Made by a program: the position numbers and the translations under genes
Assembly: GCA_963724765.1 (NCBI GenBank)
Contig: CAVRVY010000004.1
Coordinates: forward strand, 1,088,001 to 1,152,000
DNA from: an uncultured delta proteobacterium
GTDB taxonomy: Bacteria; Desulfobacterota; Binatia; Binatales; Binataceae
Direction: 5' to 3'
Length of the DNA: 64,000 nucleotides
In this document: in pieces, positions 1 through 41,241 of the stretch
Layout: every line of letters starts with the position of its first letter
Numbering within the stretch: the first letter of the stretch is position 1
The notes under the pieces: model-generated
Database searches by the model: none
The model's input: only the letters and a program-made list of their open reading frames with translations
Told to the model about the DNA's origin: nothing

Positions 1-435
1 CAGCGTTTAACATCCTCTGTCTACTGAGCCTACCGCTGGATGCCTGGTGCGCCTTTATTCTTGCCGCAACGTCACGAGACGTTACCTGGCTTCGCTACTC
101 GGTGGCTACATATTCGGCTTTTCGGCCTTTACCCTGGGACACTTGACGTTCGGCGATCTACCTCTGCTAATCGTGTTTCCAGTTCCACTGGCGATATATT
201 TTGCGGCGCGACGAATCGCAGACGAAATATCAGAACGTAAGTTCATCTGGCTGATTGCGTCGCTACTGCTGGCACAGTTCCTCCTTTCGCTCGAGATTTT
301 CGCGACAATGACGATGTTTGGTGCGATCGCCTTGGGCCTGGGACTTATGTTGGCGAACGACAGCCAGATCAAGAAACGCACGTTGGCATTGCTCAAACCC
401 CTGGCCAAAAGCTATGCGGCCACACTGATAGTGGT

Positions 436-469
436 TGGAGTTGACCCGGTTTCGTGGACAGTGGCGGAG
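436..469 (+). repeat. IS3 left inverted repeat
   Basis: Inverted match to 1664-1694. Confidence 0.9.
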
Positions 470-493
470 TGGGGAAAGTGAAGGAGAGCCACG

Positions 494-808
494 ATGCCCA
501 AGAGTCATGCACGGTATGCGCTGGAATACCGGCGCCGAATGGTGGAGCTGGCGCGGGCAGGGCGTAGTCCCGACGATCTCGCGAAGGAGTTCGAGCCGAC
601 CGCCCAGTCGATTCGCAACTGGGTGGCGCAGGCGGAGCGCGATGCGGGCCGTCGTCTTGATGGGCTGACCAGCGACGAGCGGCAGGAGCTTACCCGGCTG
701 CGGCGTGAGAACCGGGTGCTGCGCGAAGAGCGCGAGATACTATCAAAAGCCGCGGCCTGGTTCGCGACGGAGACCGGTTCGGTGCCGTCACGGCGTTCGA
801 ATTCGTGA
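494..808 (+). CDS. IS3 transposase OrfA (HTH + leucine zipper)
   Basis: RYALEYRRRMVEL...SIRNWV...ELTRLRRENRVLREEREILSKAAAWFA, with RBS AAGGAG upstream. Confidence 0.93.
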   Translation: MPKSHARYALEYRRRMVELARAGRSPDDLAKEFEPTAQSIRNWVAQAERDAGRRLDGLTSDERQELTRLRRENRVLREEREILSKAAAWFATETGSVPSRRSNS

Positions 809-7557: not shown

Positions 7558-9228
7558 ATGGACGAGGAGGTACGCTTCCGTCTGCTCTACGATCTCGGCT
7601 GCGCATTCGCCGCGCGAATCGAGATCGATCAACTGATCCCCTTGGTGGTGACCAAGTGCCGCGAAGCGCTGGACGCCGAGGGCGCTTCGGTCCTGCTGCT
7701 GGACGACGATCGCAAAGAGCTCTACTTCCCCTATAACTCCGAGGAAGACCCCGAGATCGCAGAGCGCCTCGTGCGTCTGCGCTTTTCGGCCGAGCTCGGA
7801 ATCGCCGCCGCCGCCTTGAAGAGCGGCAAGGCGCTGGTGGTCAACGACGCGCAGAACGATCCCCGCCTTTACCACGGGATCGACAAAATGACCGGACTGG
7901 TCACCCGCAACGTGCTTGCCGCGCCGCTGTCGACACGCCAGGGAACTATCGGCGTGGTCGAGGTGGTGAACGGGCGCGGCGCGGAGGGATTCACCGAGGG
8001 TGACCTGTCGTTCCTCGAGGCCATCTCGGGCAGCATCGCGATCGCGATCGAGAATGCGCGGCTCTATACCCAGGTGCGCGAGTCCGAGGCCAGCCTGCAA
8101 ACCCAGGTCGGGGCGTTGCGCCGCGACCTGGCCCGTCACGACGCCTTTACTGAAATCGTCGGCACCGGGCCGGCGATGGCGGAGGTGCTGCGGCTGATGG
8201 AGACCGCTGCCGCGTCGTCGATAACGGTGCTCATCCATGGCGAGACCGGCACCGGCAAGGAACTGGTCGCACGCGGACTGCATCGCGCCAGCGCGCGCAG
8301 CGACCATCCGTTTCTCGCGCTCAATTGCGCCGCGATGCCCGAGCCGCTGCTCGAGAGCGAACTCTTCGGCCATCGGCGCGGCGCGTTTACCGGCGCGATC
8401 CGCGACAACCCCGGACTGTTCCGTGCGGCCGCGGGCGGGGTGGTCTTTCTCGACGAGGTCGCCGACATGCCGTTGCCGATGCAGGCCAAGCTGCTGCGCG
8501 TGCTCGAGGAACAGGAAGTCGTGCCCTTGGGTGACAGCTTTCCGCGCAAGGTCGACGTGCGCGTATTGTCGGCGACCAACCGCGATCTCAGAGCGGAGGT
8601 GGCGGCCGGCAGGTTCCGCGAGGATTTGTACTATCGGCTCGCGGTTTTTCCGATTGCGTTGCCGCCGCTGCGGGACCGGCGCGAGGACATCCCGCTGTTG
8701 GCCACGCGCTTTCTCGCCATCGCAACCGAGCAGCAGCGCAAGCCCATCGCCGGTCTCGAACCGGCCGCTCTCGAGCTGCTGACGAAATACGGATGGCCCG
8801 GCAACGTACGTGAACTGCGCAACGAAATCGAGCGCGCGGTGGCGCTGGCGCGATCGAGCGCGAGCGTGGCGCCCGAGCATCTCTCCGCGCCCGTGCGCGC
8901 CCAGGGCGAACTCAACCATGGCGCGCCGACCAATCATGCGGAGCCCGGCCGCGCCAGTCGAGTCACCGCGGCAGCGGCGGCCGTCCAGGCGGCGGCCGCC
9001 CGGGCACCGGCTCGAAGCCAAGAGGCCAAGGGCCAGGAAGCCGAGGGCCAGGAACCTACGGGCGAGGACGCCAAGAGTCCGCTGCGCCGGGCGCGCGCGG
9101 CGTTCGAGACGAATTTCATCGCCAAGGTGCTCGACGAGCATCGAGGCAACGTGTCGCGCGCGGCCATCGCTCTGGGGCTCTCGCGCGCCTCGCTGCAGAA
9201 GAAAATGAAGGAGTACGGCTTGCGCTAA
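7558..9228 (+). CDS. GAF-domain sigma54-dependent enhancer-binding activator (Fis-type HTH)
   Basis: N-terminal GAF, Walker [28 protein letters not shown] and C-terminal [20 protein letters not shown]. Confidence 0.94.
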
Positions 9229-9348
9229 GTTGGCAGTGCCAAGATTAGTGGCATGCGACGGACACAAATGTATCCAGTCGAGATCCTCTGGAGGACAAAT
9301 ATAACTGAGAGATCAAGGATTTAGGCGAATCGAATATTGATCGATAAA

Positions 9349-9364
9349 TGGCATTCGTTTTGCT
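9349..9364 (+). promoter_or_regulatory. Candidate sigma54 -24/-12 promoter
   Basis: TGGCATTCGTTTTGCT (GG-N10-GC), ~130 bp upstream of the receiver gene. Confidence 0.65.
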
Positions 9365-9494
9365 GTTGGGATGGGAGGGACGTCGGTGACTGTGACAATC
9401 GAGGGGGGCTGGTTGGGCGGGGTGGCGACCGTTAAATTCCGACGTTCGGCGAGGCGCAAACTCCGTGCATAACGAAAAGGATCAGGGGGACCCC

Positions 9495-9989
9495 ATGGGC
9501 GTCGGCTCTTCAAATAGTGGCGGTGGGCGGGAGATTCGGGAACTGGAACGCGGCCAGTGGGTGGTCGAACTATGTCGTACCAAACAACCTCGACTGCGAG
9601 TGCTGGTGGTCGAGGATGAACCCGATGCGCAAACCTTGCTGAGATTCATCCTCGAGCCCAGGTACGAAGTCATCACCGCTTCCTCGGGCGAAGAAATGCG
9701 CCGTCAGCTCGAGGCTTATCCCGAGCGCCTGAGCCTGGTCCTGATGGACCTTAAGCTGGAGGGCGACGAAGATGGAGTGACGCTCACCCGGCATCTGCGC
9801 GGCGAAGACCGCTGGAAAGGCATCCCGATCGTCGCGCTTACCGCCTGCTCGACCGGCGATGACTTGCGCCGTGCGATCGAGGCCGGATGCGACGACTACG
9901 TGCCCAAGCCGTTCTACCGCAAGCAGCTCACGGCGCTGGTTGAACGCCTAATCGATAATTCTCAGCGCTGCGAGGATTCCGGCTCGTAG
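9495..9989 (+). CDS. Stand-alone response regulator receiver (CheY/DivK-like)
   Basis: VLVVEDE, LVLMDLKL, IPIVALTA and CDDYVPKPF motifs. Start is uncertain (9465 or 9495). Confidence 0.88.
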   Translation: MGVGSSNSGGGREIRELERGQWVVELCRTKQPRLRVLVVEDEPDAQTLLRFILEPRYEVITASSGEEMRRQLEAYPERLSLVLMDLKLEGDEDGVTLTRHLRGEDRWKGIPIVALTACSTGDDLRRAIEAGCDDYVPKPFYRKQLTALVERLIDNSQRCEDSGS

Positions 9990-10217
9990 CAGACCTACAG
10001 GAACCTAACCGCCGACTCCCCTTCCCGCTGCAGCAAGGGGAGTGAAGAGGTTCTGGTTCCGTTCTCGTTTTTCTGCCGGGCATTTGTAGGGGCCGTTCCG
10101 TGAACGGCCCCCCTTTTCATGCCGGGCGGACTTGATGGTGTTCTTCGTCTGATTGACTTGGACTCGACTCCCGCATTCGTGAGGGATGTCGACAAACACA
10201 AAAAATCGCTCTGCGTC

Positions 10218-10318
10218 GATTCTTCACTTCGGAAGCCTTCGTTCAGGACGACATCACAAAGGCTCCCTCTGTGTCATCCTGAGCGTCAGCCAAGGATCCT
10301 CCGCGAAGCGATGGATCT
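10218..10318. repeat. REP-like inverted intergenic repeat pair
   Basis: CGTTCAGGACGACA (10240-10253) is inverted to TGTCATCCTGAGCG (10272-10285), 12/14 with both mismatches G-U compatible. Resembles GTCATCCTGAGCG...GGATCT-type extragenic palindromes. Confidence 0.5.
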
Positions 10319-10502
10319 TTTTTCCCGCATTTATCCAATCCGTACATAACGCCTGAACGTGACACTTGTACGTAACGCAGAAGTGAATTCCCGACCCCAA
10401 CATTTCGCGGGCGGGTGATTTCTGTTGGCGTTTGGACGGCCCGCCAATCCGGCGGACTTGAACGCGAGCGAGGGCTGTTCTAAAAGAGATCGACGCGGCG
10501 AT

Positions 10503-10817
10503 ATGAGACAGCTTTTTTCAAAGTCGGAACGGCGAGCCCTCAGTTCGGTTCTGGCCGTCCTCATCGTGTTGGCCAGCCTTCCATTGACCGCTGGCGTCGT
10601 CATCGCTTTCGGATCGAGCCAACCGGAATTCACCGTCAACATTTGCCAGCCAATCCAAGCGTTAGATCACGTGTCGAACACCATGGTTGCTCGCCCGGCT
10701 GCGGTCCTACGCGAGTTCGTGCCCTGTGATCTGGGTTCGGTCACGGCAGAGCCAACCGTTCGAATGATCGAGTGTCCAGCAACACCCGATACCCCACCCC
10801 CCAGGCAATCCGTCTAA
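10503..10817 (+). CDS. Small exported/TM protein with Cys residues and a Pro-rich C-terminus (DUF2946/CutF-like leader appearance)
   Basis: TM segment VLAVLIVLASLPLTAGVVI, 3 Cys, ends PATPDTPPPRQSV. First ORF of the Cys-rich operon. Confidence 0.6.
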   Translation: MRQLFSKSERRALSSVLAVLIVLASLPLTAGVVIAFGSSQPEFTVNICQPIQALDHVSNTMVARPAAVLREFVPCDLGSVTAEPTVRMIECPATPDTPPPRQSV

Positions 10818-10926
10818 CAGCGTTCCTGCAAGCAACAGGCTTCTTGATTTGATTCGTGACGCCGCAGGCGTCGGGAGTCGAGCTTTCGTCAAGGCGGTCA
10901 CCTCAATGAGCCGCCGGAGAATATGT

Positions 10927-11940
10927 ATGAAATGGATTGGAGCGACTGCGCTCTCGTCGCTAACGGATACGCGTGTGCCCAATTTTTGGCGCAGGGCCGG
11001 ACGTCTGCTGATCGCGGCCGTCCTGCTCATTAGCCTGGCGCCGAGGCTCGCCTGGGCCTGCGCTTGCGGATGCGGTGTTTTCGACGTTGGCACCCCCTCG
11101 CTCTTTCCTGCTGGTGCGGGAGGCACGGTGTGGCTCGAGTACGATTTCATGAATCAGTACATTAACTGGCACGCGACCGGGCCATCCTCTGGCATCAACA
11201 ATAGCGATAAACAAATCAAAACAGATTTTCTAACCGCGGGCGGTCAATACATGTTCAATCGGAGTTTCGGGTTAATGGTGACCGTCCCCTATACGATCAG
11301 GACGTTCAGGACGCAGGGCACCGGCGACGAGATCGACCAGTACAACCATGCCAATTTTGGCGACGTGCGCATTTGGGGCATGTACACGGGACTACAAGAG
11401 GACATGTCGCTCGGATTGTTAGCCGGATTCAAGCTACCAACCGGTGACCACACCTATAACGACTTTGATCGCGACACCTCGATTGGAACGGGAAGCACAG
11501 ACCTTCTGCTCGGCGCCTTTAAGCAGGGAACCTTCCCCAGCCGGATCGGGAACGCCAAGCTGACTTTTCTAGATCGCCCTTTTTATTATTTTGCACAGGT
11601 CCAGTACGAATATCCATTTGCGAGTACAGGAAACTACACCCCGGGCAAGGAATTCGACGGCGCGGTGGGCACCTACTACAACTTCGGCCAGGTCGGGCCG
11701 CTCAAAGAACTCGCTCCGATGCTTACGGTTCTCGCGTCGGTCCGTGGGCATGATATGGGCTCGGAAGCGGACCCTCCAGACAGCGGTTACGATCGTGTGC
11801 TGCTCGCCCCTGGGGGCGAAATCAGACTCGGAGTTCTCAGATTCTATGCCGATGTCGAATTTCCGATTTTCCAATTCGTGAACGGATACCAGTTGACCAC
11901 TCCATATCTGATCAAAACGATTTTCAGCTACGATTTCTGA
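10927..11940 (+). CDS. Outer-membrane beta-barrel transporter (MetA-pathway/SphA-like porin appearance) with N-terminal CACGC motif
   Basis: Signal peptide ending AWA|CACGC, alternating beta strands, GFKLPTG and GTGSTD motifs, C-terminal Phe (FSYDF). Start is uncertain. Confidence 0.75.
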   Translation: MKWIGATALSSLTDTRVPNFWRRAGRLLIAAVLLISLAPRLAWACACGCGVFDVGTPSLFPAGAGGTVWLEYDFMNQYINWHATGPSSGINNSDKQIKTDFLTAGGQYMFNRSFGLMVTVPYTIRTFRTQGTGDEIDQYNHANFGDVRIWGMYTGLQEDMSLGLLAGFKLPTGDHTYNDFDRDTSIGTGSTDLLLGAFKQGTFPSRIGNAKLTFLDRPFYYFAQVQYEYPFASTGNYTPGKEFDGAVGTYYNFGQVGPLKELAPMLTVLASVRGHDMGSEADPPDSGYDRVLLAPGGEIRLGVLRFYADVEFPIFQFVNGYQLTTPYLIKTIFSYDF

Positions 11941-11949
11941 GGATATGGC

Positions 11950-12513
11950 TTGAAAATGCGCCCAACCTTCTCAGTGCTCGCATTTTTGGTGATGATCCTG
12001 GCGATCGTGCCTGCCTTTAGCGCGCTCGCCGCCGGCGAGGTTGGCCAGGCAGCACCGGCACTCGTGGTTCAGGAGCTAAGTGGTCAGAATTTCGACCTCG
12101 CAGCACTGCGCGGCAAGGTCGTAATCGTCAACTTCTGGGCCACGTGGTGTCCGCCCTGCCGTGAGGAAATGCCTACCCTGGATGCATTCTACCGGCGTTA
12201 TCACGGTGAGGGGCTGGAGATGATCGGTCTGAGCGCCGACCGCCCGCATGATCGATCCGACGTAATAAAGATGATGCAATCGTTCAGCTATCCGGCGGCG
12301 ATGTTGGACGACGCCAAAGTCAACGGGTTCGGCGGCCCCAACGCGTTGCCCGTGACATTTATTATCGATGGCAAGGGAATGGTTCGCGCCAGGCTTACGC
12401 CCGATGAAACGCGAGTGACGGAGAAAACCCTCGATAGCGTGGTACTTCCGTTGCTCCATCAGAAAGCCGCGGCACAAACTTCATCGGTTAAGAATTCGAC
12501 CGGGAACCCTTAG
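11950..12513 (+). CDS. TlpA/ResA-family thiol-disulfide oxidoreductase, exported
   Basis: VNFWATWCPPCREEMP and LPVTFIID motifs plus a signal peptide. Confidence 0.92.
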   Translation: MKMRPTFSVLAFLVMILAIVPAFSALAAGEVGQAAPALVVQELSGQNFDLAALRGKVVIVNFWATWCPPCREEMPTLDAFYRRYHGEGLEMIGLSADRPHDRSDVIKMMQSFSYPAAMLDDAKVNGFGGPNALPVTFIIDGKGMVRARLTPDETRVTEKTLDSVVLPLLHQKAAAQTSSVKNSTGNP

Positions 12514-12578
12514 TGCCGAGCACAAATGTTAGCGACCCGATGTGTGCCAGACGGGTGTATGATTTTTAAGTGATTCCA

Positions 12579-12968
12579 ATGAAGACGCTGATCCTCGCTG
12601 CTGCTGTACTGCTGACCGGATGCGCCACGACGAAGACCCCGCCATCCGACGTGGACGCGCGGGTCATGCTGCAGCAAAGGAAGAGTCACGAAATCGCCGT
12701 GCGCGAGCAGCAATGCATCGACGAAACAGAAACTCGTAGCAATGATCAGGTCGCGCGGATCGCGGCGGCTTCCGACCCCGATGAAGAAATGCTGATGCAG
12801 AAAGCGAACGATGAGCGAGATCGCGAACTTTACCAATGCAGGACGGCCGCAGATCGTGAAAATGATGAACTCACTTCCAGCGAACGTGCGCAATATCAGG
12901 ATGACGTGCAGGACGAACGCGATCGCAGCGCGCTGATGATGATTCTTACGACTTCGAGTCCGCGCTGA
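12579..12968 (+). CDS. Helical lipoprotein of unknown function
   Basis: Lipobox LLTG|C, charged coiled-coil body with two further Cys. Confidence 0.7.
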   Translation: MKTLILAAAVLLTGCATTKTPPSDVDARVMLQQRKSHEIAVREQQCIDETETRSNDQVARIAAASDPDEEMLMQKANDERDRELYQCRTAADRENDELTSSERAQYQDDVQDERDRSALMMILTTSSPR

Positions 12969-12988
12969 AGTCTATAAGGAGAAGTGCG

Positions 12989-13666
12989 ATGCATTCTCTG
13001 CGAACCGCAGCGCCGATCAGCATCAGCCTCTTCCTAACGATGCTGATTGTTCTCGCCGCCGCGGTGACTCTGATGGGTTGTCGTCCGCAGGCTCAGGATA
13101 TTGGGGAGCGTGGAGGATTCGCGATGCGCGATGCCTCTGACTGCTTGCCCGATATCACCTTAGTCGATCAGCATGGCCGCAACGTTTCTCTGGCCTCCTT
13201 GAAGGGGAAACCGGTGCTGTTCGATTTCATCTACACCTCCTGTCCCGGACCGTGCCTTCTGCTCACAGCACGAATGAAAAAGGTCGCAGACCGACTGGGA
13301 TCCAAACTTGGAACGGACGCTCGTATCGTGTCGATAACCGTTGACCCCGAACATGATCAGCCCAAGCAGCTTCTCGCATATGCAAGTGCCCAGGGCGCCA
13401 ATGTTAATGGCTGGCTGTTTTTGACGGGAACGCCCAAGCAGATCGAAGATGAGATGGCACGATTCAAGTTGATTCGCCAGCGTGAAGCCGATGGAACGGT
13501 CGATCATGTTCTCGAATTCTTCCTGGTTGATGCGAACGGTCGCGCGTTGCTGCAGTACATGGGCGAAAAAGCCGAACCGGATCAGGTGGCGAACGACGTA
13601 GAGCGGGCGGCGGCAGGTGAGTCGGTAACGGCTGGAGATGGCGCAAACGTAGCGGTTGCCCTTTAG
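12989..13666 (+). CDS. SCO1/SenC/PrrC copper chaperone, probable lipoprotein
   Basis: FIYTSCPGPC (CxxxC), SITVDPEHD and VDH His ligand. RBS AAGGAG. Confidence 0.92.
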   Translation: MHSLRTAAPISISLFLTMLIVLAAAVTLMGCRPQAQDIGERGGFAMRDASDCLPDITLVDQHGRNVSLASLKGKPVLFDFIYTSCPGPCLLLTARMKKVADRLGSKLGTDARIVSITVDPEHDQPKQLLAYASAQGANVNGWLFLTGTPKQIEDEMARFKLIRQREADGTVDHVLEFFLVDANGRALLQYMGEKAEPDQVANDVERAAAGESVTAGDGANVAVAL

Positions 13667-13677
13667 GAGGTGAGCGC

Positions 13678-14280
13678 ATGAAGTCGTCACGGGCATCCAT
13701 AGCATCGTTGATGGCTCTAGCGTGTGTCTCTGCCGCAGCGATTCTTGTCGCTCGAACGCACGCCCGCGGCCTGACCAGCTCTGCGCTGACAATCAGGGCG
13801 GTCGCGCATCAGTGGTGGTGGGAATTCGACTATCCGTCGCTCGGTATCAAGACCAGCGATGTTTTGTACGTTCCCAGCGCTACAAACGTTCGCCTGGAGC
13901 TTGCCTCCGCCGACGTGATCCACAGCTTCTGGATTGCCGGGATGAAGGAATCCGTAGACATTCTTCCAGGCAAGACGCACCCGCTTGATCTAGTCGTCAA
14001 CTCACCGGGCGAGCTCTATGGAAATTGCGACTCCGGTTGTGGCTGTGGAACTGTCTGCATGCGATTTCGCGTGCTGGCGAGCAGTCCCGGGAAATTCGAG
14101 CGATGGGTGGCGCGCGAGCGTTTGCTTCGCGCGGAGTTCAAGCCGCCGCCCAAGGTTGACGCACCAGCTTGCGCCTTGAATACCGGCTACCAGCGCCGCT
14201 TGGGCCACAATTTGCACGAGAGTCATTTGCAACGGTTGCTTAATGGAGACGAATCAACTGGCAAAAGCCCCTCGCACTGA
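13678..14280 (+). CDS. Orphan cytochrome c oxidase subunit II-like cupredoxin domain with atypical Cys-rich metal loop
   Basis: AHQWWWEFDYP and SADVIHSFWI motifs. GNCDSGCGCGTVCM replaces CxExCGxxHxxM. RBS AGGAGG. Confidence 0.85.
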   Translation: MKSSRASIASLMALACVSAAAILVARTHARGLTSSALTIRAVAHQWWWEFDYPSLGIKTSDVLYVPSATNVRLELASADVIHSFWIAGMKESVDILPGKTHPLDLVVNSPGELYGNCDSGCGCGTVCMRFRVLASSPGKFERWVARERLLRAEFKPPPKVDAPACALNTGYQRRLGHNLHESHLQRLLNGDESTGKSPSH

Positions 14281-14289
14281 TTTGCTCAA

Positions 14290-14862
14290 ATGACTTCGGC
14301 AGTGTCGGGGCGCCTGCCTCAAGCGAGGAGTTTCGGATCGCAGGTTCTGCGCGATCTCGGCGGCGTTGCAGTGCTCGCGCTCGTGGCCCTGGGGGTCGGA
14401 CTCGTGATGAACCGGGTCTCGTCGCAGCCGCTCCCGATCGTCTATCAGACGCCCGAACAGCGGTTCGACGCCGAGCTTACGACTCTGGTTGCGGCGCCGC
14501 CGTTTAAAATCGCGCCGGCGGCAACTGTCGGGCTCGAGGAATTCAGTTCGGCCGTCAAAAGCAAGAGCGCGCTCATCCTCGACGCGCGCCCGTCTGTCTT
14601 CTTCGAACAGGGACATGTGCCTGGCGCGCTCAATCTCTCTCGCGACCGCTTCGCGCATGATTATCGGCATCTTGCGTCCGTACTGAAGCCCGCCGTTGAT
14701 AAGCCGATCATCGTGTACTGCTCCGGCGGCGACTGCCATGATAGCCGGCTGGTCGCGAACGCCATGCTGAGCCTCGGCTTCAGCAACGTCAGCGTGTTTA
14801 CAGGCGGATGGGAGGCATGGTCGGCGGCTGGGCTGCCAATATCCAAAGGCACTCTGCGATGA
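14290..14862 (+). CDS. Membrane-anchored rhodanese-like protein
   Basis: N-terminal TM, ILDARP, GHVPGALNL, IIVYCSGGDCHDS and GGWEAW. Confidence 0.9.
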   Translation: MTSAVSGRLPQARSFGSQVLRDLGGVAVLALVALGVGLVMNRVSSQPLPIVYQTPEQRFDAELTTLVAAPPFKIAPAATVGLEEFSSAVKSKSALILDARPSVFFEQGHVPGALNLSRDRFAHDYRHLASVLKPAVDKPIIVYCSGGDCHDSRLVANAMLSLGFSNVSVFTGGWEAWSAAGLPISKGTLR

Positions 14863-15311
14863 TGGTTCCCCAGGATGCGCGCCGGGACTACATCGTGCTC
14901 GGAGCCAGCCTCGCCCTAGGCGCCATATTTGTTTATGCGGGCATCGACAAGATACACGACCCGCTGCAGTTCGCTGACAGCATCGCTGCGTTCGGTATCC
15001 TGCCGGCGGCGTTCATTAGTTTGCTCGCGTTGAGTCTGCCGCCATTCGAGATCGCATGCGGCCTCCTGTTGCTCTGGCCTCCAACCAGACGGGTCGGGGC
15101 GCTCGCGATAGCGCTCATCTCTGTAGTCTTTTTCTCGGCGCTGCTGTCTGCGCTGGTGCGAGGTTTAACGCTAGACTGCGGCTGCTTCGGGATCGGTCCG
15201 CCGTCGCGTCCGAGGATGTGGCTGGAGCTCGCGCTGAACGTGGTGTTTCTCTTGGGCGCGCTGTCCGTTTATCTGCGCTCGATAGTGCGAGTGCAGGTGC
15301 GCGCGCCGTGA
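14859..15311 (+). CDS. MauE/DoxX-family membrane protein
   Basis: GAIFVYAGIDKI, EIACGLLLL and RGLTLDCGCFG motifs. ATGA overlap with the rhodanese gene. Confidence 0.88.
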   Translation: MMVPQDARRDYIVLGASLALGAIFVYAGIDKIHDPLQFADSIAAFGILPAAFISLLALSLPPFEIACGLLLLWPPTRRVGALAIALISVVFFSALLSALVRGLTLDCGCFGIGPPSRPRMWLELALNVVFLLGALSVYLRSIVRVQVRAP

Positions 15312-15422
15312 GCACGCCTGCAATCAAGGTATGACCAATACGGCCCCTCGGGAAGCTTCGCTACGGGCAGGCATTGCATCGGTTCAACGAGCGTCGGCCG
15401 TCCGCCATCTTATGGCGCCCCG

Positions 15423-17879
15423 CTAGTGGTTCAACGCAGGTAGCGGAATTGTCAGAGTGTCGTAGACCGTAATTCTCGGACCGTAGGCCGCCTGGAAGAT
15501 CCCGATCCCTTCGGCAGGCCTGATCAGGTTAGTCCGGTCGAGAATGTTGAGCAGCGTGATCCGGTCCGTAATTTCGCCGATGTGCGGCAACTGAAAGCTT
15601 CTTTGTCCGCTCAGGTCGATCTGAACGACGTTCGGCAGAGATTCCAAATCGGCGAAGCCCCCGCGCAATCCACTGCTATAGAGAGCATCAACGCTGAACA
15701 CATATGGTTTCCAGCGATAGGTAGCGCCGCCCGAGGCGCCGTAGAGCGGCTGATGATCGAGCACGATATAGTGTCGGTTGATGTACCCGAGCTCGTCGGG
15801 GTCGAAGTTAAACTCCCCGGTCGCCACTCCTTTCTGCATGTTCCTGCCGATCGTAGTACTGCCATGGATTGAGAGATTGTCGGCTTTATAAGTGACCGTG
15901 GTCTCCGTCCCCCAGATGTAGCCATGCCTATAGTTGAAGGGCGCGAAAATCGGCACATCTCCGAACTGGCCCGTATCGAGGTAATGGCCCGTGTATTCAT
16001 AAAACCCATCTTCCGAGATCGCGATGTGCTTCGTCAGTTGATGTACTATACCGGCATCTAACTCATAGTCGTCCTCGGTTTCGGGCGTGACGATTCCAGT
16101 GCCTGCCAAGCCGGTGGTTCCAGCAAACGCCGCGGGGGCGCCGGGCGAGATGCCTTGAAAGCTCGGCACCTGCATGTACCGAGCAAACCCGGCGTGGAGC
16201 GTGGTGTCGAGCCGTGGGACAAAGACCAGATTGACTGTCGGATCGATTTGATTGTTGTAAGTAAAGCCGCTCAAACGATCCCAGCGTACGCCAAAATTTG
16301 CTCGTAGCTTCTCGGTGATTTGCCAGGTGTCTTCCAGATAGATCCCGGACAATAGATTGATCTTGTTGGTATTGTTTATTACCCGAACGGGAAAGAAAGG
16401 AGGTCCAGTCTGATCGCCGGCCGCATCGACGTTGAACACCAGTGAGCTGTCGTCCGCCTCGACCGCGTATTCACCAAGATAGAAGCCCGCACCGAGCGTA
16501 CGTGCGCCAAGCTTGTAAGTCAGATCACCTTGAAGCGTGTTGTCGAAATCGCTGTGGAACGCGGTTGACGCCACTCCCTGATAGATGAGTTCGCCAATCC
16601 GATCGGGTTCGAATTTCTGCGAGATATAGTGGGTCGAATACGAGAGCTGGTAAGCAAGCCCGGGCTCAGGCGCTCCATTCAGTGCAAGAATGCCCAGATA
16701 GTCACGAAAGTTCAGAAATGAGTTGATATCGGCTGACGGAAAATTGCTCACGCCGGTTAGTTCGAACTCTGGTGCGAGGTTCGCTCGATTGGGTAACTGG
16801 TTGTTGCTCGCGGCGACCGAGGTAATGAGACTCAGCCGAGTGGTCGGAGTCAAGTTGTAGGCAAAGAAGCCGAATCCCTGACCCTGATTGGTATGGTCGT
16901 GAATCGCATCCGGCGCCGGGGTAGCGGAGCTGAACGCGGTGTTGCTCTGGCTATAGAGCCCGCTGATGTAATAGCTGAAGTTACCGTCGCAGCCGCCGTA
17001 CTGAAAGCTAGGCTGAACGGTATTCCGTTGCCCGCCGTACATGCTGACGCTACCGCCCGGTTGTTCGCACCCGTCCTTTGTTTGAATGTTCACCACACCG
17101 CCGGTGGCATAGCTGTAGCGCGACGGCAGAATCCCATCGAGCAGGCTCAGTTGCTTGATGAACATTGGATTGATCATGGAGAGAAAGGGCGGATTGGTAT
17201 TGATGTCGAGGGGGACCATGACTCCATTGATCTGGTACTGGAATTGAGGCCCTTCCGTGTTGCGTATGTGGATCTGCTGATTCTGGTCGATCGCGACGCC
17301 GGGCATCTGCGCCAGTACATCCGTGATCGTGGTGTTATCGCCGCGCGGTAAGTTGGAAATATCCTGTGCCGTTACGGTGTATCTGTTGGCGCCGGTGGTG
17401 GAGACGCCGTTTGGTGCGCGAATCTGGCTGGTCTGAACGGGAAGCGTCAGCGCCGTCTGTGCGCCAAGGGTAATCGAGATCGTCTTTCCGGCACTCTGTG
17501 GAAAGACAATAATCTTGTTTGCCGGCCTGAAGCCCGACTTTAGAGCTACCAGCGAGAAAACGCCCGGATTTGGTGGTGCGATTTTAAACCGTCCGTCTGC
17601 GCCGGTGGTGGCACGAGCGACGGCGTGGCCATGTTCGTCCTGCAATTCGAGGTTCACCTGAGCCAGAGGCCGGCCCAGCGCATCGGTGATCGTCCCGGAC
17701 ACTTGTTGCGCGGCGGCCAGACAGGGAGGTACAAGGCCAAGGACCAGCAGGCCCGCTAGTACCAAATGCCACATTCGCCAGGGCGTTTGCTCTGCCTTTC
17801 GGCTCGTTAGGAACCTCGACCGGGGTAATCGTACGGTCGCTGCTTCGTATTCGTGGACGCTTCGCTTTGAGACGTTCAT
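15423..17879 (-). CDS. TonB-dependent receptor with N-terminal carboxypeptidase-regulatory-like domain
   Basis: VSGTITDALGRPL, plug motifs (DVLAQMPGV, YQINGV, GGVVNIQTK) and barrel YLEDTWQITEKLRANFGVRWD. True start is likely 17879 or 17774, since the track start at 18020 runs through the Fur box. Confidence 0.9.
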   Translation of the reverse strand: MNVSKRSVHEYEAATVRLPRSRFLTSRKAEQTPWRMWHLVLAGLLVLGLVPPCLAAAQQVSGTITDALGRPLAQVNLELQDEHGHAVARATTGADGRFKIAPPNPGVFSLVALKSGFRPANKIIVFPQSAGKTISITLGAQTALTLPVQTSQIRAPNGVSTTGANRYTVTAQDISNLPRGDNTTITDVLAQMPGVAIDQNQQIHIRNTEGPQFQYQINGVMVPLDINTNPPFLSMINPMFIKQLSLLDGILPSRYSYATGGVVNIQTKDGCEQPGGSVSMYGGQRNTVQPSFQYGGCDGNFSYYISGLYSQSNTAFSSATPAPDAIHDHTNQGQGFGFFAYNLTPTTRLSLITSVAASNNQLPNRANLAPEFELTGVSNFPSADINSFLNFRDYLGILALNGAPEPGLAYQLSYSTHYISQKFEPDRIGELIYQGVASTAFHSDFDNTLQGDLTYKLGARTLGAGFYLGEYAVEADDSSLVFNVDAAGDQTGPPFFPVRVINNTNKINLLSGIYLEDTWQITEKLRANFGVRWDRLSGFTYNNQIDPTVNLVFVPRLDTTLHAGFARYMQVPSFQGISPGAPAAFAGTTGLAGTGIVTPETEDDYELDAGIVHQLTKHIAISEDGFYEYTGHYLDTGQFGDVPIFAPFNYRHGYIWGTETTVTYKADNLSIHGSTTIGRNMQKGVATGEFNFDPDELGYINRHYIVLDHQPLYGASGGATYRWKPYVFSVDALYSSGLRGGFADLESLPNVVQIDLSGQRSFQLPHIGEITDRITLLNILDRTNLIRPAEGIGIFQAAYGPRITVYDTLTIPLPALNH

Positions 17880-17991
17880 AACGCGTACTGACAATCCTCG
17901 GGGTGGCGCACCAGCCTCGCCTGCCGCGGACTTGGCGAGTGTCTCGGTACAGTTGTTGGGTTGGCTGACACGACGCTTAAGCCATGAAGCA

Positions 17992-18014
17992 ATATTGAGA
18001 ATGATTCTCAATAT
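17992..18014. promoter_or_regulatory. Fur-type operator (perfect 11-1-11 palindrome)
   Basis: ATATTGAGAAT-G-ATTCTCAATAT contains TGAGAATnATTCTCA and lies directly upstream of the TBDR. Confidence 0.8.
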
Positions 18015-18154
18015 CTGCATAAGCCTGATTTGTCAAATCTTCGGTACGTCGATGTGGCGAAGGCGCTGAACGTTACGCGCTGCGAGTTGCCCCGCCGGAC
18101 AAGAGCCACCAATCCAGCAGGACGAACGCGATCGCAGCGCGTTTATGACGATTC

Positions 18155-19363
18155 TTACGACTTCGAATCGACGCTGAAGAAATTTTCAGGCGGCGCGAAA
18201 ATCACGCGCTCCGTGTGGCGCGCGATCATCAAGTCCTCATTGGTCGGAATGACGCGCACCGTGCACAGACTGGCCGGCGCACTGATCGGATTCGCGCATG
18301 CGTCGTTGCGCTGCGGGTCCAGTTTGATCCCCATGTACTCAAGGCCGCGGCACACCTCGAGCCTGACAGGGGCGGCCCGCTCTCCGATACCGCCGGTAAA
18401 AACCAGCAGATCGAGGCCTCCGAGCACGGCCGCCAGCGCTCCGATTTGCTTGCGCACCTGGTAGCAGAACATCTCGATCGCCAGCGCGGCAGCCGGCTCC
18501 GCCGCCCTTTTTTCCAGCAGCATTTTCACGTCGGAGCTGATTGCCGAGACACCAAGCAGGCCCGACTCGTGATTGACGAGCCGCTCCAGGCGCCGGCCGT
18601 CATAGCCCTTCGCGTTGATGAGATAAACCATCAGCCCTGGATCCAGGTCGCCGCTTCGCGTGCCCATCATGAAGCCGCCGGTCGGCGTGAAGCCCATCGT
18701 GGTATCCACCGCGCGCCGCTCGCGCACGGCCGCCATGCTGGCGCCGTTTCCAAGGTGCGCGATTACGATGCGCGCGGGAGCCGCGGGGCCGAGCGCCTCC
18801 ATGATGTATTCGTAGGAGATCCCATGAAACCCGTAGCGCCAGATCCCCTCGTCCCACAACGCGCGAGGTAGCGCAAAACGACGCGCCACCTCGGGCATCT
18901 GCCGATGGAAGCCGGTATCGAAGCACGCCACCTGCGGGCGGCCTGGAAACCGCGAGGCCACGGTCTCGATTCCTTCGATCTCAGCCGGAAGATGGAGCGG
19001 CGCAAAGGGAATCAGGACTCGTAATGCGTCGATGAGCGCCGGCGTGACGCGCTCGGGAGTGAAGTGGTGCGGACCGCCATGGACCAGGCGATGGCCGATG
19101 GCGTCGGGCCGCGGCAGCCGCAGCCGATCCATCTCGTCGAAAAGCGCACCGGGGGCATCCGCCGATCGCGGGAAGCTCCGCGCGGCATCGCTGAGCGTTG
19201 TGCCCTGGCGATCGCGGATCCAAAGCCGCCCGCTGCCGAGTCCTATCCCTTCCGCCTCCCCTTCGGCGAGCAGTTCCTCTCCGTTCGTGGCAAGCCGATG
19301 GAGCGCAAACTTGTCGGAGGAAGATCCGCTGTTGAAGGAAAGTATGACGTGCGAAGCATCCAC
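18155..19363 (-). CDS. ackA: Acetate/propionate kinase
   Basis: NSGSSS, GHRLVHGG, APLH, FDTGFH, YGFHGISY, HLGNGAS, GTRSGDLDP, FTGGIGE and PTNED motifs. Confidence 0.93.
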   Translation of the reverse strand: MDASHVILSFNSGSSSDKFALHRLATNGEELLAEGEAEGIGLGSGRLWIRDRQGTTLSDAARSFPRSADAPGALFDEMDRLRLPRPDAIGHRLVHGGPHHFTPERVTPALIDALRVLIPFAPLHLPAEIEGIETVASRFPGRPQVACFDTGFHRQMPEVARRFALPRALWDEGIWRYGFHGISYEYIMEALGPAAPARIVIAHLGNGASMAAVRERRAVDTTMGFTPTGGFMMGTRSGDLDPGLMVYLINAKGYDGRRLERLVNHESGLLGVSAISSDVKMLLEKRAAEPAAALAIEMFCYQVRKQIGALAAVLGGLDLLVFTGGIGERAAPVRLEVCRGLEYMGIKLDPQRNDACANPISAPASLCTVRVIPTNEDLMIARHTERVIFAPPENFFSVDSKS

Positions 19364-19459
19364 CGCGCGTAATGCCTCCGATGCGTCCCGGGCGCTATGG
19401 GCGCTGTTCGACGTTGACTTGCGCTGCCTTGCAAATTTCCCGCAAATTTTCCGCGAAGC

Positions 19460-21827
19460 TCAATGCGGCCATTTCCAGTTGCGAATCTCGGGCTGGTCGA
19501 TGCCGTTGGCCAGGGCGTAGTCGAGGTTCTCGCAAATCTGGTCCTTCAGCCAGTCTTTGACGTGAGCGCCAGTGACCCGCAGCCGGGCGACGCGATCGAT
19601 CGCGTCGATGGCAAGGTTGAAGCGGTCGGTCTGGTTTTCGATTGCGAGTTGGAGCGGAGTGTTGATGCTCCCGAACTCCTTGTAGCCGCGCACGTGCAGA
19701 TTGACGTGATTCGCTCTGCGGTAGGCGAGCTTGTGAATCAGCGACGCGTATCCGTGAAAATTGAAGATGACCGGCTTGTCGATCGTGAACAGGCTGTCGA
19801 AGTCGCGGTCGGTAAGACCGTGCGGATGTTCGCTGCTCGGTTAAAGCTTGAACAGGTCCACGACATTGACGAAGCGGATTTTCAGGTCGGCGATTTTCTC
19901 CCGCAATATCGCCACCGCCGCGAGCGCCTCGATCGTCGCCACGTCGCCCGCGCTTGCGATCACCACGTCGGGCTCGGCGCCCTGGTCGTTGCTGGCCCAT
20001 GACCATAGTCCGATACCTTTGCTGCAATGTTTGATCGCGGAATCCATATCGAGAAACTGCGGATGCGCCTGCTTGTCGGCGACGATGATGTTGATGTAGT
20101 CGGTGCTGCGCAGGCAGTGATCCGCGACGCTCAAAAGGCAGTTGGCGTCGGGCGGCAGATAGATCCGCGTCACCCGAGGGCTCTTGTTGGTGACCACGTC
20201 GATGAATCCCGGGTCCTGATGCGTGAAGCCGTTATGATCCTGACGCCACACGGTGGAACTGATCAGGATATTGAGCGAGGAAACCGGCGCCCGCCATAAA
20301 ACTTCGTTTTTCGCCTTCTCCAGCCATTTGGCGTGCTGGTTCACCATCGAGTCGACGATGTGGGCGAAGGCCTCGTAGGTATTGAAGAGGACGTGGCGGC
20401 CGGTCAGCACGTAGCCTTCCATCCAGCCCTCCAGCGTGTGCTCGCTCAGCATCTCCATGACCCGGCCGTCGGGAGAGAGTTCGCCGCCGTCGGCGTCCTC
20501 GGGTTTCCTTTCGGCGAGCCAGGTTTTGCGAGAGGCCTCGTAGATCGCCTGCAACCGGTTAGACGCGGTCTCGTCGGGGCCGAAGACGCGAAAATTGTCC
20601 ATGTTGTCGCGCATCACGTCGCGCAAAAACTGGCCAAGCACGTAAGTGTTTTCGGCCGCTGATTGTCCGGGCCGCGCGACTTCGAGCCGGTAATCGCGAA
20701 AATCCGGCAAGCGCAACGGGCGGCGCAGCAAGCCGCCGTTGGCGTGCGGATTGGCACTGATGCGGCGGCTTCCGGCCGGCGCGAGGGCGCGCAGTTCGGG
20801 AATCAGCCGGCCCTTCGCGTCGAAAAGATCGTGTGGCCGGTAGCTCAGCATCCATTCCTCGAGCAGTTTAAGATGCGCGGGATTTGCAACGACGTCGGGT
20901 TATCGGCACCTGATGCGCCCGCCAGGAGCCCTCGAGCTTATGGCCGTCGAACTCTTTGGGCGCGGTCCAGCCCTTCGGGGTGCGCAGTATTATCATCGGC
21001 CAACGCGGCCGGCGCGGCACCCCGGTGCGTCGCGTCTCTTCCTGGATCGCGCGAATTTCAGCGAGACAGCGTTCCAGCGTGGACGCCATCTGTTGATGCA
21101 TCGTCGGCGGATCGTCGCCCTCGACCACGTAAGGCTTGTAGCCGTAGCCGACAAAAAGATTCTCGAGCTCGTCGGCCGGGATGCGGGCGAGGATTGTAGG
21201 GTTCGCGATCTTGTAGCCGTTGAGGTGCAGAATCGGCAGCACGGCGCCGTCGCGGATCGGATTGAGGAATTTGTTCGAGTGCCACGAGGTCGCCAGCGGG
21301 CCGGTCTCCGCCTCGCCGTCGCCCACCACCGCGGCCACGATCAGATTGGGATTGTCGAACGCGGCGCCGAAAGCGTGAGACAGGCTATAGCCGAGTTCCC
21401 CGCCCTCATGAATCGACCCCGGCGTCTCCGGGGTGCAATGACTGCCGATTCCTCCGGGAAACGAGAAGAGCCTGAAGAACGTTTTCAATCCCTCCTCGTC
21501 CTGGCTGCGATCGGGATAGACCTCCGTATAGGTTCCTTCGAGATAGCTGTTGGCGAGCATCGCAGGCGCGCCATGGCCGGGGCCTGAGATATAGAGCACG
21601 TTGAGGTCATACTCGCGGATGAGCCGGTTGAGGTGCACCCAGATGAAACTCTGGCCGGGGTCTGAGCCCCAATGACCGAGCAGGCGATGCTTGACGTGGT
21701 CGGGCCGCAGAGGCTCCTTCAGCAGCGGATTGTCGCGCAGGTAGAGCATCCCCACGGCCAGGTAGTTGCAGGCCCGCCAATACGCGTCGATCAGTTCTAT
21801 TTGCCTGGTCGAGAGACTAACGGACAT
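19460..21827 (-). pseudogene. xfp: Phosphoketolase (XFP), one frameshift plus one in-frame stop
   Basis: [39 protein letters not shown] and FNFHGY motifs. An extra G at 20897-20899 shifts the frame, and TAA at 19841-19843 falls in LFKL*PSSEHPHG where Gln is expected. Confidence 0.88.
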
Positions 21828-22164
21828 GAACGATGCTCCGGCGCATTCTGGCGGTCGCGAATGCGGGATTTCTGTATATTCAGCTTCGCCCAATCGTGCA
21901 GGGCGGGCAATACAGCACGGCGCCAACGCTCCGTAGGCGCCGGCAGGAAGAACAAAAAAGACCAGAATAAATAAAGCCTTGCGAAATCTGTCAGTGAGAA
22001 CTACGCAATTTGACCATTTGCAGATATAAATGCATTTGTATGACGCTGACAGTACGCGGCCATGACAGAGCGGTGAAAAAAGTGTCGTGTCGGGGCCTGC
22101 GGTGGAGGCTTGCCGAATCCCCTCCGACGCGTAAGCCGGGGTCTAACGACATGGTTCCGCATCC

Positions 22165-29137: not shown

Positions 29138-29153
29138 CGGCATGAGCTTTGCC
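29138..29153 (+). promoter_or_regulatory. Candidate sigma54 -24/-12 promoter of the EPS operon
   Basis: CGGCATGAGCTTTGCC (GG-N10-GC), 44 bp before the wza ATG. Confidence 0.6.
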
Positions 29154-29196
29154 TTCCGTAAACCACGACCGCCGCGAATGGGACAAAAAGAGCGCC

Positions 29197-30036
29197 ATGA
29201 AGAAATCACGACTTATTTGCTGCAACGCCGACACGCCGCGTGACAACGCGCGGCCTCAGCATGGATCACGCTCAACGCTGGGGCTGCTGAAGGTATCGCT
29301 CGGCGCCGCGCTGTGCGCTCTCGCGCTTTACGGATGCTCCGCATCAGCCTCGTCCTCTTCGCGCGGGGACACTGCGGCGGTCGCTCAACCTCAAGCCCCG
29401 AACCTATCGCCGGAGCAGTGCCTCAATGGGTCCGTAATTCAAACGTCGAACGATCAGCAAAACTATCACATACAGCCCGGCGATCAGTTGGCGATCAACT
29501 TCTATTTAAATCCCGAATTCAACGATCAGGTCCCGGTGAATCCCGATGGCAAGATAACCATGCGTCTGATCGGGGCGATAGATGCTGCCGGGATGACGCC
29601 GTCCGAACTGGCCGGCCAAATCGACAAGGACTACCTGAGCGAGCTGCGTTCGCCCGACGCCGCGGTCATCGTGAAGAACATGCCCGGTCGCCAGATCTAT
29701 GTCCAAGGTCAAGTCAATCGTCCAGGCGCATTTCCCCTGGCGCCAGGGATGACCGCATTGCAAGCGCTGGCGGACGCCGGCGGGGTCACGCCCGACGCTG
29801 CCGACAACAACGTGGTGCTAATCCGGCGTGACGCGTGCGGCCGTCCCACGGGTGAAAAGCTCGACTTGGCCAGCGCGGCTGACAATCCGGGCAAGGGTGA
29901 GGACGCGGCGCTGATGCCCTACGACGTGCTGGTGGTGCCGCGCAGCCGTATCGCGAATATGGATCTGTTCGTAAAGCAATACATTCGTGACCTGCTGCCA
30001 GTCCAACCTTATCTGTCGATGACCCCCGGGCTGTAA
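29197..30036 (+). CDS. wza: Polysaccharide export lipoprotein (Wza/OPX)
   Basis: Lipobox LYG|C, YHIQPGDQL, VNPDGKI, IYVQGQVNRPG (SLBB) and PYDVLVVP. Confidence 0.9.
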   Translation: MKKSRLICCNADTPRDNARPQHGSRSTLGLLKVSLGAALCALALYGCSASASSSSRGDTAAVAQPQAPNLSPEQCLNGSVIQTSNDQQNYHIQPGDQLAINFYLNPEFNDQVPVNPDGKITMRLIGAIDAAGMTPSELAGQIDKDYLSELRSPDAAVIVKNMPGRQIYVQGQVNRPGAFPLAPGMTALQALADAGGVTPDAADNNVVLIRRDACGRPTGEKLDLASAADNPGKGEDAALMPYDVLVVPRSRIANMDLFVKQYIRDLLPVQPYLSMTPGL

Positions 30037-30063
30037 CCCGGTTCGCGGAGGATTCGGACCACC

Positions 30064-31578: not shown

Positions 31579-31586
31579 CCCCCGCC

Positions 31587-32693: not shown

Positions 32694-33445
32694 GCAAATA
32701 CTACGAAGCGATAACTCGCCCGCAACAGCCGCGCCAGGTCGACGACCAGCATCGCGTGGATACTTCCGTATTCGCCGGCAACAACGCGGCGGCGCACTCG
32801 CTGGTTCCGCTTCCGATCCTCGAGCACGTTCCGGCCGCGGTGGCGCGCGCGAGCGCGATCCGCAATCTCACCGAGCGTCTGGCGCCCCTGGCGGTGGTCT
32901 CAAGGTCCACCCGCCTGGCGGTGACCGGATGTCGTCCGGGCGACGGCGCGTCGACGGTGGCGACGGCGATTGCCATCGACATCAGCCAGCGCCTGGGCCT
33001 GCGCACGATGCTGGTCGACGCCCACCTGCGGCATCCGACGCTTCATCGCCTATTCCAGCATCCCGGCCGGCGAACGCCCGAGCTGGTGCTCGATGGCGCG
33101 TTGCAGATCCGCGCCACCGAATGGCCCCGGCTGGAGCTGGTTACCTGCTGCCTGTCGAGTCCCGATTCGCAACGGCAGTTGTTCGATGAATTCGAAACGC
33201 TGTTCAGCGGGTATTCGGCCGTGATCGTCGATCTCGGCGTGACCCGGCTCGACGCGCGAATGCTGCCGCTGGCCAGGCCCGAAGATCCGATTGTCATGGT
33301 CGTGCGTCAGGGCCATACGGAGCGGCGCGAACTGGCCACGACCGCCAGCGCCTTGCGCGCGGCGAACCGTTCTCTGGCCGGCGTGATTCTTAACGATGCA
33401 GCCGATCCGGTTGCGAAACCACTACGGAGACTGTTGGGAACATGA
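32690..33445 (+). CDS. CpsD/CapB-like BY-kinase homolog with degenerate Walker A
   Basis: TGCRPGDGASTVA, LVDAHLRHP, VIVDLG and AGVILN motifs. Confidence 0.8.
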   Translation: MSKYYEAITRPQQPRQVDDQHRVDTSVFAGNNAAAHSLVPLPILEHVPAAVARASAIRNLTERLAPLAVVSRSTRLAVTGCRPGDGASTVATAIAIDISQRLGLRTMLVDAHLRHPTLHRLFQHPGRRTPELVLDGALQIRATEWPRLELVTCCLSSPDSQRQLFDEFETLFSGYSAVIVDLGVTRLDARMLPLARPEDPIVMVVRQGHTERRELATTASALRAANRSLAGVILNDAADPVAKPLRRLLGT

Positions 33446-34551: not shown

Positions 34552-34553
34552 GC

Positions 34554-36291: not shown

Positions 36292-36294
36292 AGC

Positions 36295-39242: not shown

Positions 39243-39299
39243 GCGTGAACACCGCGACATGGAAAAAGAGACCGCTACGATGACGCCGAGTTACCGAGC

Positions 39300-41232: not shown

Positions 41233-41241
41233 GAGCGCGCT

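Follow-up and report, generated by a model that had tools for sequence, protein, structure and literature searches.

A conserved, cysteine-rich and apparently lineage-restricted rewiring of the CuA domain, part of a probable copper-supply cassette

Introduction

In the quinol oxidases, the COX2 domain of subunit II (CyoA, QoxA) has a changed CuA loop. CyoA has lost the copper ligands, which the engineered form 1cyx restores, and it remains in the oxidase. According to a review, CuA coordination does not vary among oxidases and N2O reductases (PMC6696091). Within the CuA site, the glutamate contributes only a backbone carbonyl (PMC6669012). The cysteines of CoxB are reported to be reduced by TlpA and then to enter a stable, copper-bridged complex with ScoI, and this ScoI–Cu–CoxB complex has been proposed as a temporary Cu depository made of four cysteines (PMC6669012). 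CupA of Streptococcus pneumoniae is a cupredoxin chaperone with a single anchor and a thiolate-rich binuclear Cu(I) site (PMC7558416). PmoD/AmoD, also a cupredoxin, has a non-canonical CuA-like site and is encoded near CopC/CopD (PMC6189053).

Here we describe a Cys-rich COX2-like protein encoded in the window, the whole 64-kb stretch of DNA that was analyzed (Table 1). The nearest described system is the caa3-type subunit II (CoxB/CtaC; PF00116, TIGR02866), with that of Binatia themselves the closest. The two share the cupredoxin fold, the QWWW motif, the His-x34-Cys spacing, the bridging Cys pair, the Met and the loop length; their domains are 40–47% identical, and they lie on one branch of the tree. 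Unlike CoxB, the Cys-rich protein lacks the second His, the Glu and the cytochrome c domain, has one TM helix instead of two, carries three extra Cys, is shorter (median length 200 versus 352 aa) and comes from an operon without subunit I. It resembles CyoA and QoxA in the altered CuA loop of its COX2 domain, and these proteins are its top structural matches (1cyx, Z 15.3; 7xmc, Z 14.3). It differs from CyoA in keeping four side-chain ligands, adding Cys and standing apart from subunit I.

Other copper proteins can also be compared. CupA matches the fold (4f2e, Z 9.1, rmsd 1.7 over 85 residues) at 11% identity, but has a different ligand set, is cytoplasmic and serves the exporter CopA; no CopA-like ATPase is conserved in the cassette, and CupA would be a functional analogue only. 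The PmoD site spans a homodimer in another part of the fold and involves no CuA loop, whereas the Cys-rich protein keeps and rewires that loop. The PmoD motif Cx7MxHxnC, as given in PMC6189053, was not seen in it, and PmoD was not among the 50 fold matches listed, which leaves a lower-ranking match possible. PcuC (PCuAC) and the ScoI–Cu–CoxB intermediate take part, together with Sco and TlpA, in a copper relay in the periplasm (PMC6669012). PcuC, whose ligands are His and Met, has no sequence relationship to the Cys-rich protein; what is proposed here is that a CoxB-derived thiolate domain fills a similar slot. Functionally the Cys-rich protein may be similar to CupA or PcuC, and it is reminiscent of PmoD, yet none of them is a close relative.

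Results and discussion

A COX2 domain with a rewired CuA loop

The gene is preceded by a ribosome-binding site, AGGAGG, at 13665-13670. Its product matches Pfam COX2 (PF00116), and no other Pfam family, above the gathering score (E 1.4e-13, 51.2 bits versus a cut-off of 22), and scores 105.2 with NCBIfam CoxB (TIGR02866), below the curated cut-off of 147.7. AlphaFold models gave a COX2 barrel (mean pLDDT 77 at full length, 89 for residues 35-168), of which the loop is the least confident part (block pLDDT 63-68). Oxidase subunits II ranked first in fold searches (Foldseek, VIA), the best match being of CyoA/CoxB type (Z 15.3, rmsd 2.7 over 129 residues). The protein belongs to the COX2 domain family, but not to the CuA-bearing subunits II.

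The loop, CDSGCGCGTVCM, was aligned by HMMER without gaps to the CxExCGxxHxxM of solved subunits II (best, 2yev_B of a caa3 oxidase; E 3e-24). Hence C117, C121 and M128 occupy canonical ligand positions; S119 stands at the Glu position, and T125 has taken the place of the second His; two Cys, C123 and C127, are additional. An earlier note on this DNA, made from the letters alone, had read QWWWEFDYP, DVIHSFW, the bridging Cys pair and the Met as retained, Glu as replaced by Ser and the second His by Thr, and the alignment agrees on every point. Because the Glu gives only its backbone carbonyl (PMC6669012), its change to Ser removes no CuA ligand, and the sole CuA ligand lost is the second His. 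One half of the ligand set is kept complete (His82, Met128 and bridging Cys117 and Cys121), and three Cys are gained (123, 127 and 165). The note had recognized the two in the loop; it overlooked C165.

Hydropathy also supports the single N-terminal hydrophobic segment that had been noted (best 19-residue window from residue 6, mean 2.28). It may be a membrane anchor or a signal peptide; mean K+R is 1.9 before and 2.6 after the segment in 128 members, so that charge does not favor a periplasmic domain. The His-containing tail is real in this protein (H177, H180, H183, H200) but is not conserved. Tails of homologs hold 0-8 His at variable positions, which rules out a His-rich tail as a conserved metal site.

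Table 1. Features of the Cys-rich gene and its neighbors (positions in the window)
Feature	Position	Strand	Basis or occurrence
Small exported ORF, 104 aa, conserved C(Q/H/R)P, C-terminal PDxPPP	10503..10817	+	25/32 loci
Predicted outer-membrane protein, mature N-terminus ACACGCG	10849..11940	+	26-27/32 loci
TlpA/ResA-like thiol-disulfide oxidoreductase, CPPC	11950..12513	+	26/32 loci
Small lipoprotein-like protein without family	12570..12968	+	17/32 loci
SCO1/SenC: CPGPC, distal His, extra invariant N-terminal Cys	12989..13666	+	Pfam E 2.3e-27
Cys-rich COX2-like cupredoxin gene, 200 aa	13678..14280	+	Profile matches, AlphaFold models, fold matches
Single hydrophobic segment, residues 6-24	13693..13749	+	Hydropathy and flanking charge, 128 family members
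QWWWEFDYP motif	13810..13836	+	W46 invariant, 149/149 aligned members
His82 in DVIHSFW, first CuA histidine, 35 residues ahead of Cys117 as in canonical CoxB	13921..13923	+	
Rewired loop C117-D-S-G-C121-G-C123-G-T-V-C127-M128	14026..14061	+	Tandem CxxxC-G-CxxxC, then Met
Conserved tail Cys165 (P-x-C)	14170..14172	+	Lost together with C123 or C127
Rhodanese-domain protein, C(S/A)GG(D/E/A)C loop, accessory	14290..14862	+	14/32 loci
MauE/DoxX membrane protein, CGC motif, accessory	14808..15311	+	13/32 loci

The loop defines a family under purifying selection

A protein search returned 570 relatives among 810 candidates, and the 120 closest were aligned. C117, C121, C123 and M128 were found in all 119 sequences covering the loop, C127 in 118 of these, His82 in 119/120 and Cys165 in 116 of the 117 that cover it. 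Position 125 was T, A, S or K in all 119 and never His. Close homologs thus lack the canonical His; had they all kept the canonical His/Glu, the earlier note would have seen decay or error at this locus.

A loop pattern divided 402 fetched proteins into 154 His-less, 231 canonical and 17 unclassified, mostly fragments. Since this pattern requires C117, C121 and M128, the informative counts are those of C123 and C127, each present in 152/154 His-less loops versus 1/231 canonical loops. The 154 sequences, from all of which the loop His is absent, extend down to about 37% identity. The Glu position holds Ser in 115 aligned members, Ala in 29 and another residue in 5 (n = 149). Spacing from His82 to the first Cys (34 residues between) is kept in 142/151 members and is one shorter in 9, while W46 is present in 149/149 and D79 in 146/149. 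Databases label members only as subunit II or hypothetical. Searches of the open-access literature returned no paper that seems to describe the family, although an entry in a genome table could have escaped them.

Selection was assessed from pairwise dN/dS between the window gene and the 32 genome loci. The median was lowest in the loop (0.08, 25 usable pairs), followed by the domain (0.16, 30), the tail (0.43, 26) and the N-terminus (0.53, 27). Cys codons switch between TGC and TGT among loci. No stop codon, as selenocysteine variants would have, occurs within the loop in any of the 32 loci. On these comparisons the family is conserved and under purifying selection, and the rewired motif, which the earlier note had thought might define a family, does so. 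The idea of an error, or of a coxB copy in decay, draws on frameshifted or truncated metagenomic relatives (17/402 proteins did not fall into either class by the loop pattern). Yet 154 sequences share the His-less loop over a wide range of identity, dN/dS is 0.08-0.16, and Cys codons vary synonymously. The loop Cys, the Met and His82 are kept across the closest 120 homologs, which likewise argues against chance or error. We give decay or error a negligible probability and, on sequence grounds, consider it excluded.

Range, origin and loss of oxidase features

A scan of GTDB genomes, of which the best 80 of 454 loci were kept, yielded 32 loci with the Cys-rich loop and 48 with a canonical one. 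Titles of the 32 name Binatia, Binataceae or Binatus in 12 cases, only 'delta proteobacterium' in 19 and 'Proteobacteria' in 1. Their close identity suggests that the family is confined to one lineage, an estimate that members matching neither search pattern would escape. This soil lineage is reported to carry copper monooxygenases (PMC8262859).

In a tree built with the loop removed, 25 sampled members formed one clade (support 100/99). The family and 14 Binatia-type CoxBs fell on one side of a branch from 30 other CoxBs (97/86), and a quick tree with 65/149 members gave the same picture. Because the tree rests on 99 columns, with outgroups picked by similarity and no tested root, the Cys-rich protein likely, though not certainly, arose as a duplicate of the lineage's own caa3-type CoxB. 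A separate canonical CoxB accompanies it in at least five genomes (L009/L075, L011/L071, L014/L079, L017/L076 and L018/L035).

Much of what marks an oxidase subunit is gone. Canonical relatives have two TM helices, whereas the family has one hydrophobic segment and a median of 44 residues before the WWW motif. CxxCH, the mark of a fused cytochrome c, occurs in 184/231 canonical proteins versus 0/154 family members. Glu, His and Lys are present in 212/214, 214/214 and 207/214 canonical rows and each in 0/149 aligned members, and Asp94 is relaxed (84/149 versus 209/214). The lost Lys is presumably a contact to subunit I; we take W46 to be the electron-entry Trp and place both W46 and D79 on the electron-entry face. 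The bovine equivalents of the Glu, the His and Asp94 are E198, H204 and D173, which belong to a water cluster between subunits I and II; E198 carries the Mg (PMC12901375).

Searches for subunit I (tblastn with A-type and ba3-type queries, and a motif scan) found none in the window or in 30/32 loci. Within 8 kb, in fetched flanks, subunit I accompanies 48/48 canonical loci versus 2/32 Cys-rich ones, 5 of which have <3 kb of upstream sequence. Both cases are upstream operons. L016 has an A-type oxidase operon (I/III/IV; L016 1-2272) ahead of the cassette. In L034, SCO and the Cys-rich gene are preceded by a ba3-type oxidase operon (L034 3647-7914), which is frameshifted and encodes a subunit II of its own that contains the His. 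The cassette of L016 also has an inserted gene (L016 5933-6631) that reads by eye like an Fe/Mn superoxide dismutase.

One might take these two loci as a sign that the protein is an alternative subunit II, joining a subunit I whose gene lies elsewhere. Oxidase subunits II are, after all, the best structural and sequence matches, and ba3-type subunits II likewise have one TM helix and Gln for Glu (PMC6696091, PMC12901375). We nevertheless find this reading very improbable, given the lack of subunit I in 30/32 loci and the 64-kb window, the separate CoxB of at least five genomes, and the subunit II that the L034 oxidase already has. The interface itself has eroded, with Glu, His and Lys gone and Asp94 relaxed.

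A third extra cysteine that is lost with a loop cysteine

C165 is present in 146/151 members with a sufficiently long tail. Four members lack C123 (P0136, P0286) or C127 (P0065, P0129), and all four also lack C165. Among the remaining 147, only P0101 lacks C165; its domain is that of P0072, and its tail looks frameshifted. On a tree of 147 rows the four occupy separate branches (4 changes), and with 0-2 changes at 27 near-invariant sites they show no general decay. Fisher's test of the co-loss gave p 2e-7 with rows treated as independent; a tree-aware sign test gave p 0.25, its 3 pairs on well-supported branches being too few for significance. In each loss two Cys disappear, and one of the extra Cys stays. 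C123, C127 and C165 act as one unit, which may be a metal site or a disulfide plus one ligand. DAPAC resembles DAPCAICH, which had prompted the idea that C165 is left over from the missing cytochrome c domain, as its first heme Cys. This is unsupported: profile-profile comparison aligned the shared helix only, and the spacing is 22 versus 27-28 residues.

A disulfide plus one ligand would suit a retuned, working CuA. C123 or C127 would be the terminal ligand and the other would be disulfide-bonded to C165, giving an electron shuttle that operates without subunit I, for example to reduce Cu(II) or to aid metal uptake. Two Cys would then go, and one extra Cys stay, in every loss. The exact retention of the His82-x34-Cys spacing, loop length, bridging Cys pair and Met would also be explained, as would the near-invariance of W46 and D79. 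A His-to-Ala CuA azurin reportedly retains a binuclear site. PmoD, moreover, forms a CuA-type center from a non-canonical ligand set (PMC6189053). However, the only conserved candidates for redox partners in the cassette are thiol proteins, the protein has no cytochrome c domain, and the review cited above describes CuA coordination as invariant across oxidases and N2O reductases (PMC6696091). The retained loop Cys may be either one, which is odd for a fixed ligand. We regard a retuned CuA as plausible, the chief rival of the reading preferred below, though the less likely of the two.

The gene lies in a cassette with SCO and TlpA

In the window, a same-strand run comprises a small leader, an outer-membrane protein, TlpA, a small lipoprotein, SCO, the COX2-like gene, a rhodanese and MauE. 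The COX2-like gene has its ribosome-binding site partly within the SCO stop codon. SCO immediately precedes this gene in 29/32 loci and adjoins it in 31/32, the exception beginning at a contig edge. The 32 loci are mostly close kin, so that synteny counts are not independent and overstate independence; SCO adjoins the Cys-rich gene also in the most divergent loci (L030, L031 and L034). It is often present in two or three copies per locus, and several loci have up to four paralogs. The earlier note had suggested that the protein could be a client of the adjacent SCO, TlpA and rhodanese. The link to SCO and TlpA has good support from synteny (SCO adjacent in 31/32, TlpA in 26/32); that to rhodanese is weaker (14/32).

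The upstream SCO has an extra Cys (DCLP) ahead of the thioredoxin fold in 24/24 aligned rows. Directly upstream SCOs cluster, yet 4 changes are needed on a quick tree, so that a dedicated SCO clade is suggestive only. Two SCO-COX2 'fusions' (P0282, P0337) look like read-through or frameshift products, as the internal Met and hydrophobic segment are kept and P0337 is visibly frameshifted; we set them aside as evidence of partnership.

The outer-membrane protein probably starts downstream of 10849, and ACACGCG begins the mature chain in all 26 rows that include the N-terminus. It had no Pfam or NCBIfam match. Its atlas neighbors include a cluster with 13% PF13557, a lead only, which would suggest a PF13557-like barrel, and we consider it a candidate metal-capturing plug. 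The small ORF upstream has features of a CutF/CruR-like leader and fits filters for such leaders (PMC9973294): it has <150 aa, PP within the last 15 residues (PDTPPP) and a same-strand downstream gene. Its hydrophobic, export-like N-terminus was read by eye. CxxC and CxxxC are absent from it, one Cys alone being conserved, and a longer reading (10425-10817) had no Pfam match, DUF2946 included. It is a candidate metal-sensing arrest peptide with one Cys in place of CxxC. Rfam searches over 9000-18500 gave nothing at gathering scores, and counts from a promoter/terminator scan equaled the shuffle level. Folding of leader-to-OMP intergenic regions gave no clear signal (median z -1.0 over 25 regions); a GACGCC/GGCGTC hairpin recurs by eye in these regions.

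Downstream, the rhodanese (two-Cys loop CSGGDC) and MauE/DoxX (CGC) travel as a pair in 13-14/32 loci, possibly as a membrane electron or sulfur relay for TlpA. Further neighbors among the 32 loci are FtrD-like (14), PCYCGC (8), ZIP (7), YHS (5) and CopC/CopD (3) genes, of which the FtrD-like and ZIP genes would also suit iron or zinc. In 8/32 loci (among them L008 6828-7292 and L016 6805-7278), SCO genes flank a gene for a PCYCGC protein (PF13798) that bears an additional CxxxHCCC segment, a hint that PF13798, a family of unknown function, handles copper. A PCuAC motif scan gave matches in 0/80 loci and none in the window, a weak result because no positive control accompanied the pattern. A TonB-dependent receptor (15423-18020, - strand) faces the cassette; a relative is nearby in only 3/32 loci.

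Such surroundings would also suit a protein that acts in a thiol-redox relay, or that binds a soft metal other than copper (Zn, Ag, Hg or Fe-S), in concert with TlpA, rhodanese and MauE/DoxX; copper would then be incidental. The tandem CxxxC and distant Cys look like relay cysteines, neighbors are rich in Cys motifs (CACGCG, CYCGC, CSGGDC, CGC), and FtrD-like and ZIP genes are present in 14/32 and 7/32 loci. But His82 and Met128 are kept, needlessly for a pure thiol relay; the tightest partner is an SCO with intact CxxxC and His; and rhodanese and MauE are absent from more than half of the loci. We judge this explanation plausible, but of low probability.

A possible copper buffer or relay

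The explanation we prefer, and give about an even chance, is that the protein is an SCO-loaded, thiolate-rich Cu(I) buffer or relay in a copper-supply cassette. Purifying selection on a conserved domain (dN/dS 0.16; loop, 0.08) and a CoxB origin (clade 100/99; branch with Binatia CoxB 97/86) point this way, as do the lost oxidase features (Glu/His 0/149, CxxCH 0/154). So does the context, with SCO directly upstream in 29/32 loci and with CopC/CopD, PCYCGC, YHS, FtrD-like, ZIP and CutF-like leader genes. So too does the absence of C165 from 4/4 members without C123 or C127 and from 1/147 others. TlpA and ScoI are known partners of CoxB cysteines (PMC6669012), and CupA sets a precedent for a cupredoxin chaperone with a thiolate-rich binuclear Cu(I) site (PMC7558416). 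A CoxB-shaped, thiolate-rich domain beside SCO and TlpA and without oxidase contacts would most simply be an SCO client that stores Cu(I) and hands it on. The idea of a thiolate-rich Cu site, store or chaperone, raised in the earlier note, fits the evidence.

Under this buffer or relay model, a CoxB duplicate would have left the oxidase and taken up copper handling. Its ancestry and neighbors suggest that the domain would be anchored on the periplasmic face of the inner membrane, where TlpA would keep its thiols reduced. The adjacent SCO would dock on the CoxB-like loop and deliver copper to it, much as ScoI supplies CoxB. In place of the lost His, the additional thiolates would bind at least two Cu(I); their site would be rich in sulfur and open to exchange, unlike a sealed, purple CuA. 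Imported copper would be buffered there and relayed, under copper scarcity, to clients such as the true oxidase.

Several observations count against this model. W46 and D79 are near-invariant, which fits a redox role equally. The loss of C165 along with just one loop Cys could also reflect a disulfide and a single terminal ligand. The flanking charge (1.9 versus 2.6), the FtrD-like and ZIP neighbors and the kin-dominated synteny counts weaken it further.

More tentatively, the protein might be a natural sulfur-enriched CuA derivative that keeps its His/Met half-site. Cys123, Cys127 and Cys165 might provide a thiolate terminal ligand of a redox-active dicopper center or a third Cu(I) site, that is, a multi-copper thiolate cluster on a CoxB scaffold. 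It could then be a CoxB decoy that parks SCO-delivered copper, standing in for PcuC in oxidase assembly in Binatia.

In this family the CuA domain has genuinely been rewired, under selection and seemingly in one lineage, and the gene lies in a probable copper-supply cassette. A scaffold under selection in which one His is traded for thiolates is a natural experiment on the role of the second His. The family bears on whether Cys-terminal or higher-nuclearity CuA can exist, and the protein is small and expressible. If the preferred reading is true, a respiratory subunit has been recycled as a metal-handling protein. The family also marks an undescribed Cys-rich copper cassette with a CACGCG outer-membrane protein, TlpA, several SCOs, a PCYCGC protein and an arrest-peptide-like leader.

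Other observations

L025 has a further small cupredoxin at about 250-600 (- strand), 7.5 kb from the Cys-rich gene; it is frameshifted, and its loop, CxHxCGxGHxxM, is canonical. Elsewhere in the window, ORF translations read by eye indicate an exopolysaccharide export and synthesis cluster at 29149-42444 (+ strand), with Wza/Wzc-like proteins, a flippase, glycosyltransferases and an ExeA-like ATPase. A phosphoketolase-like gene at 19395-21926 (- strand), beside acetate kinase, is split across several frames, which may reflect sequencing frameshifts.
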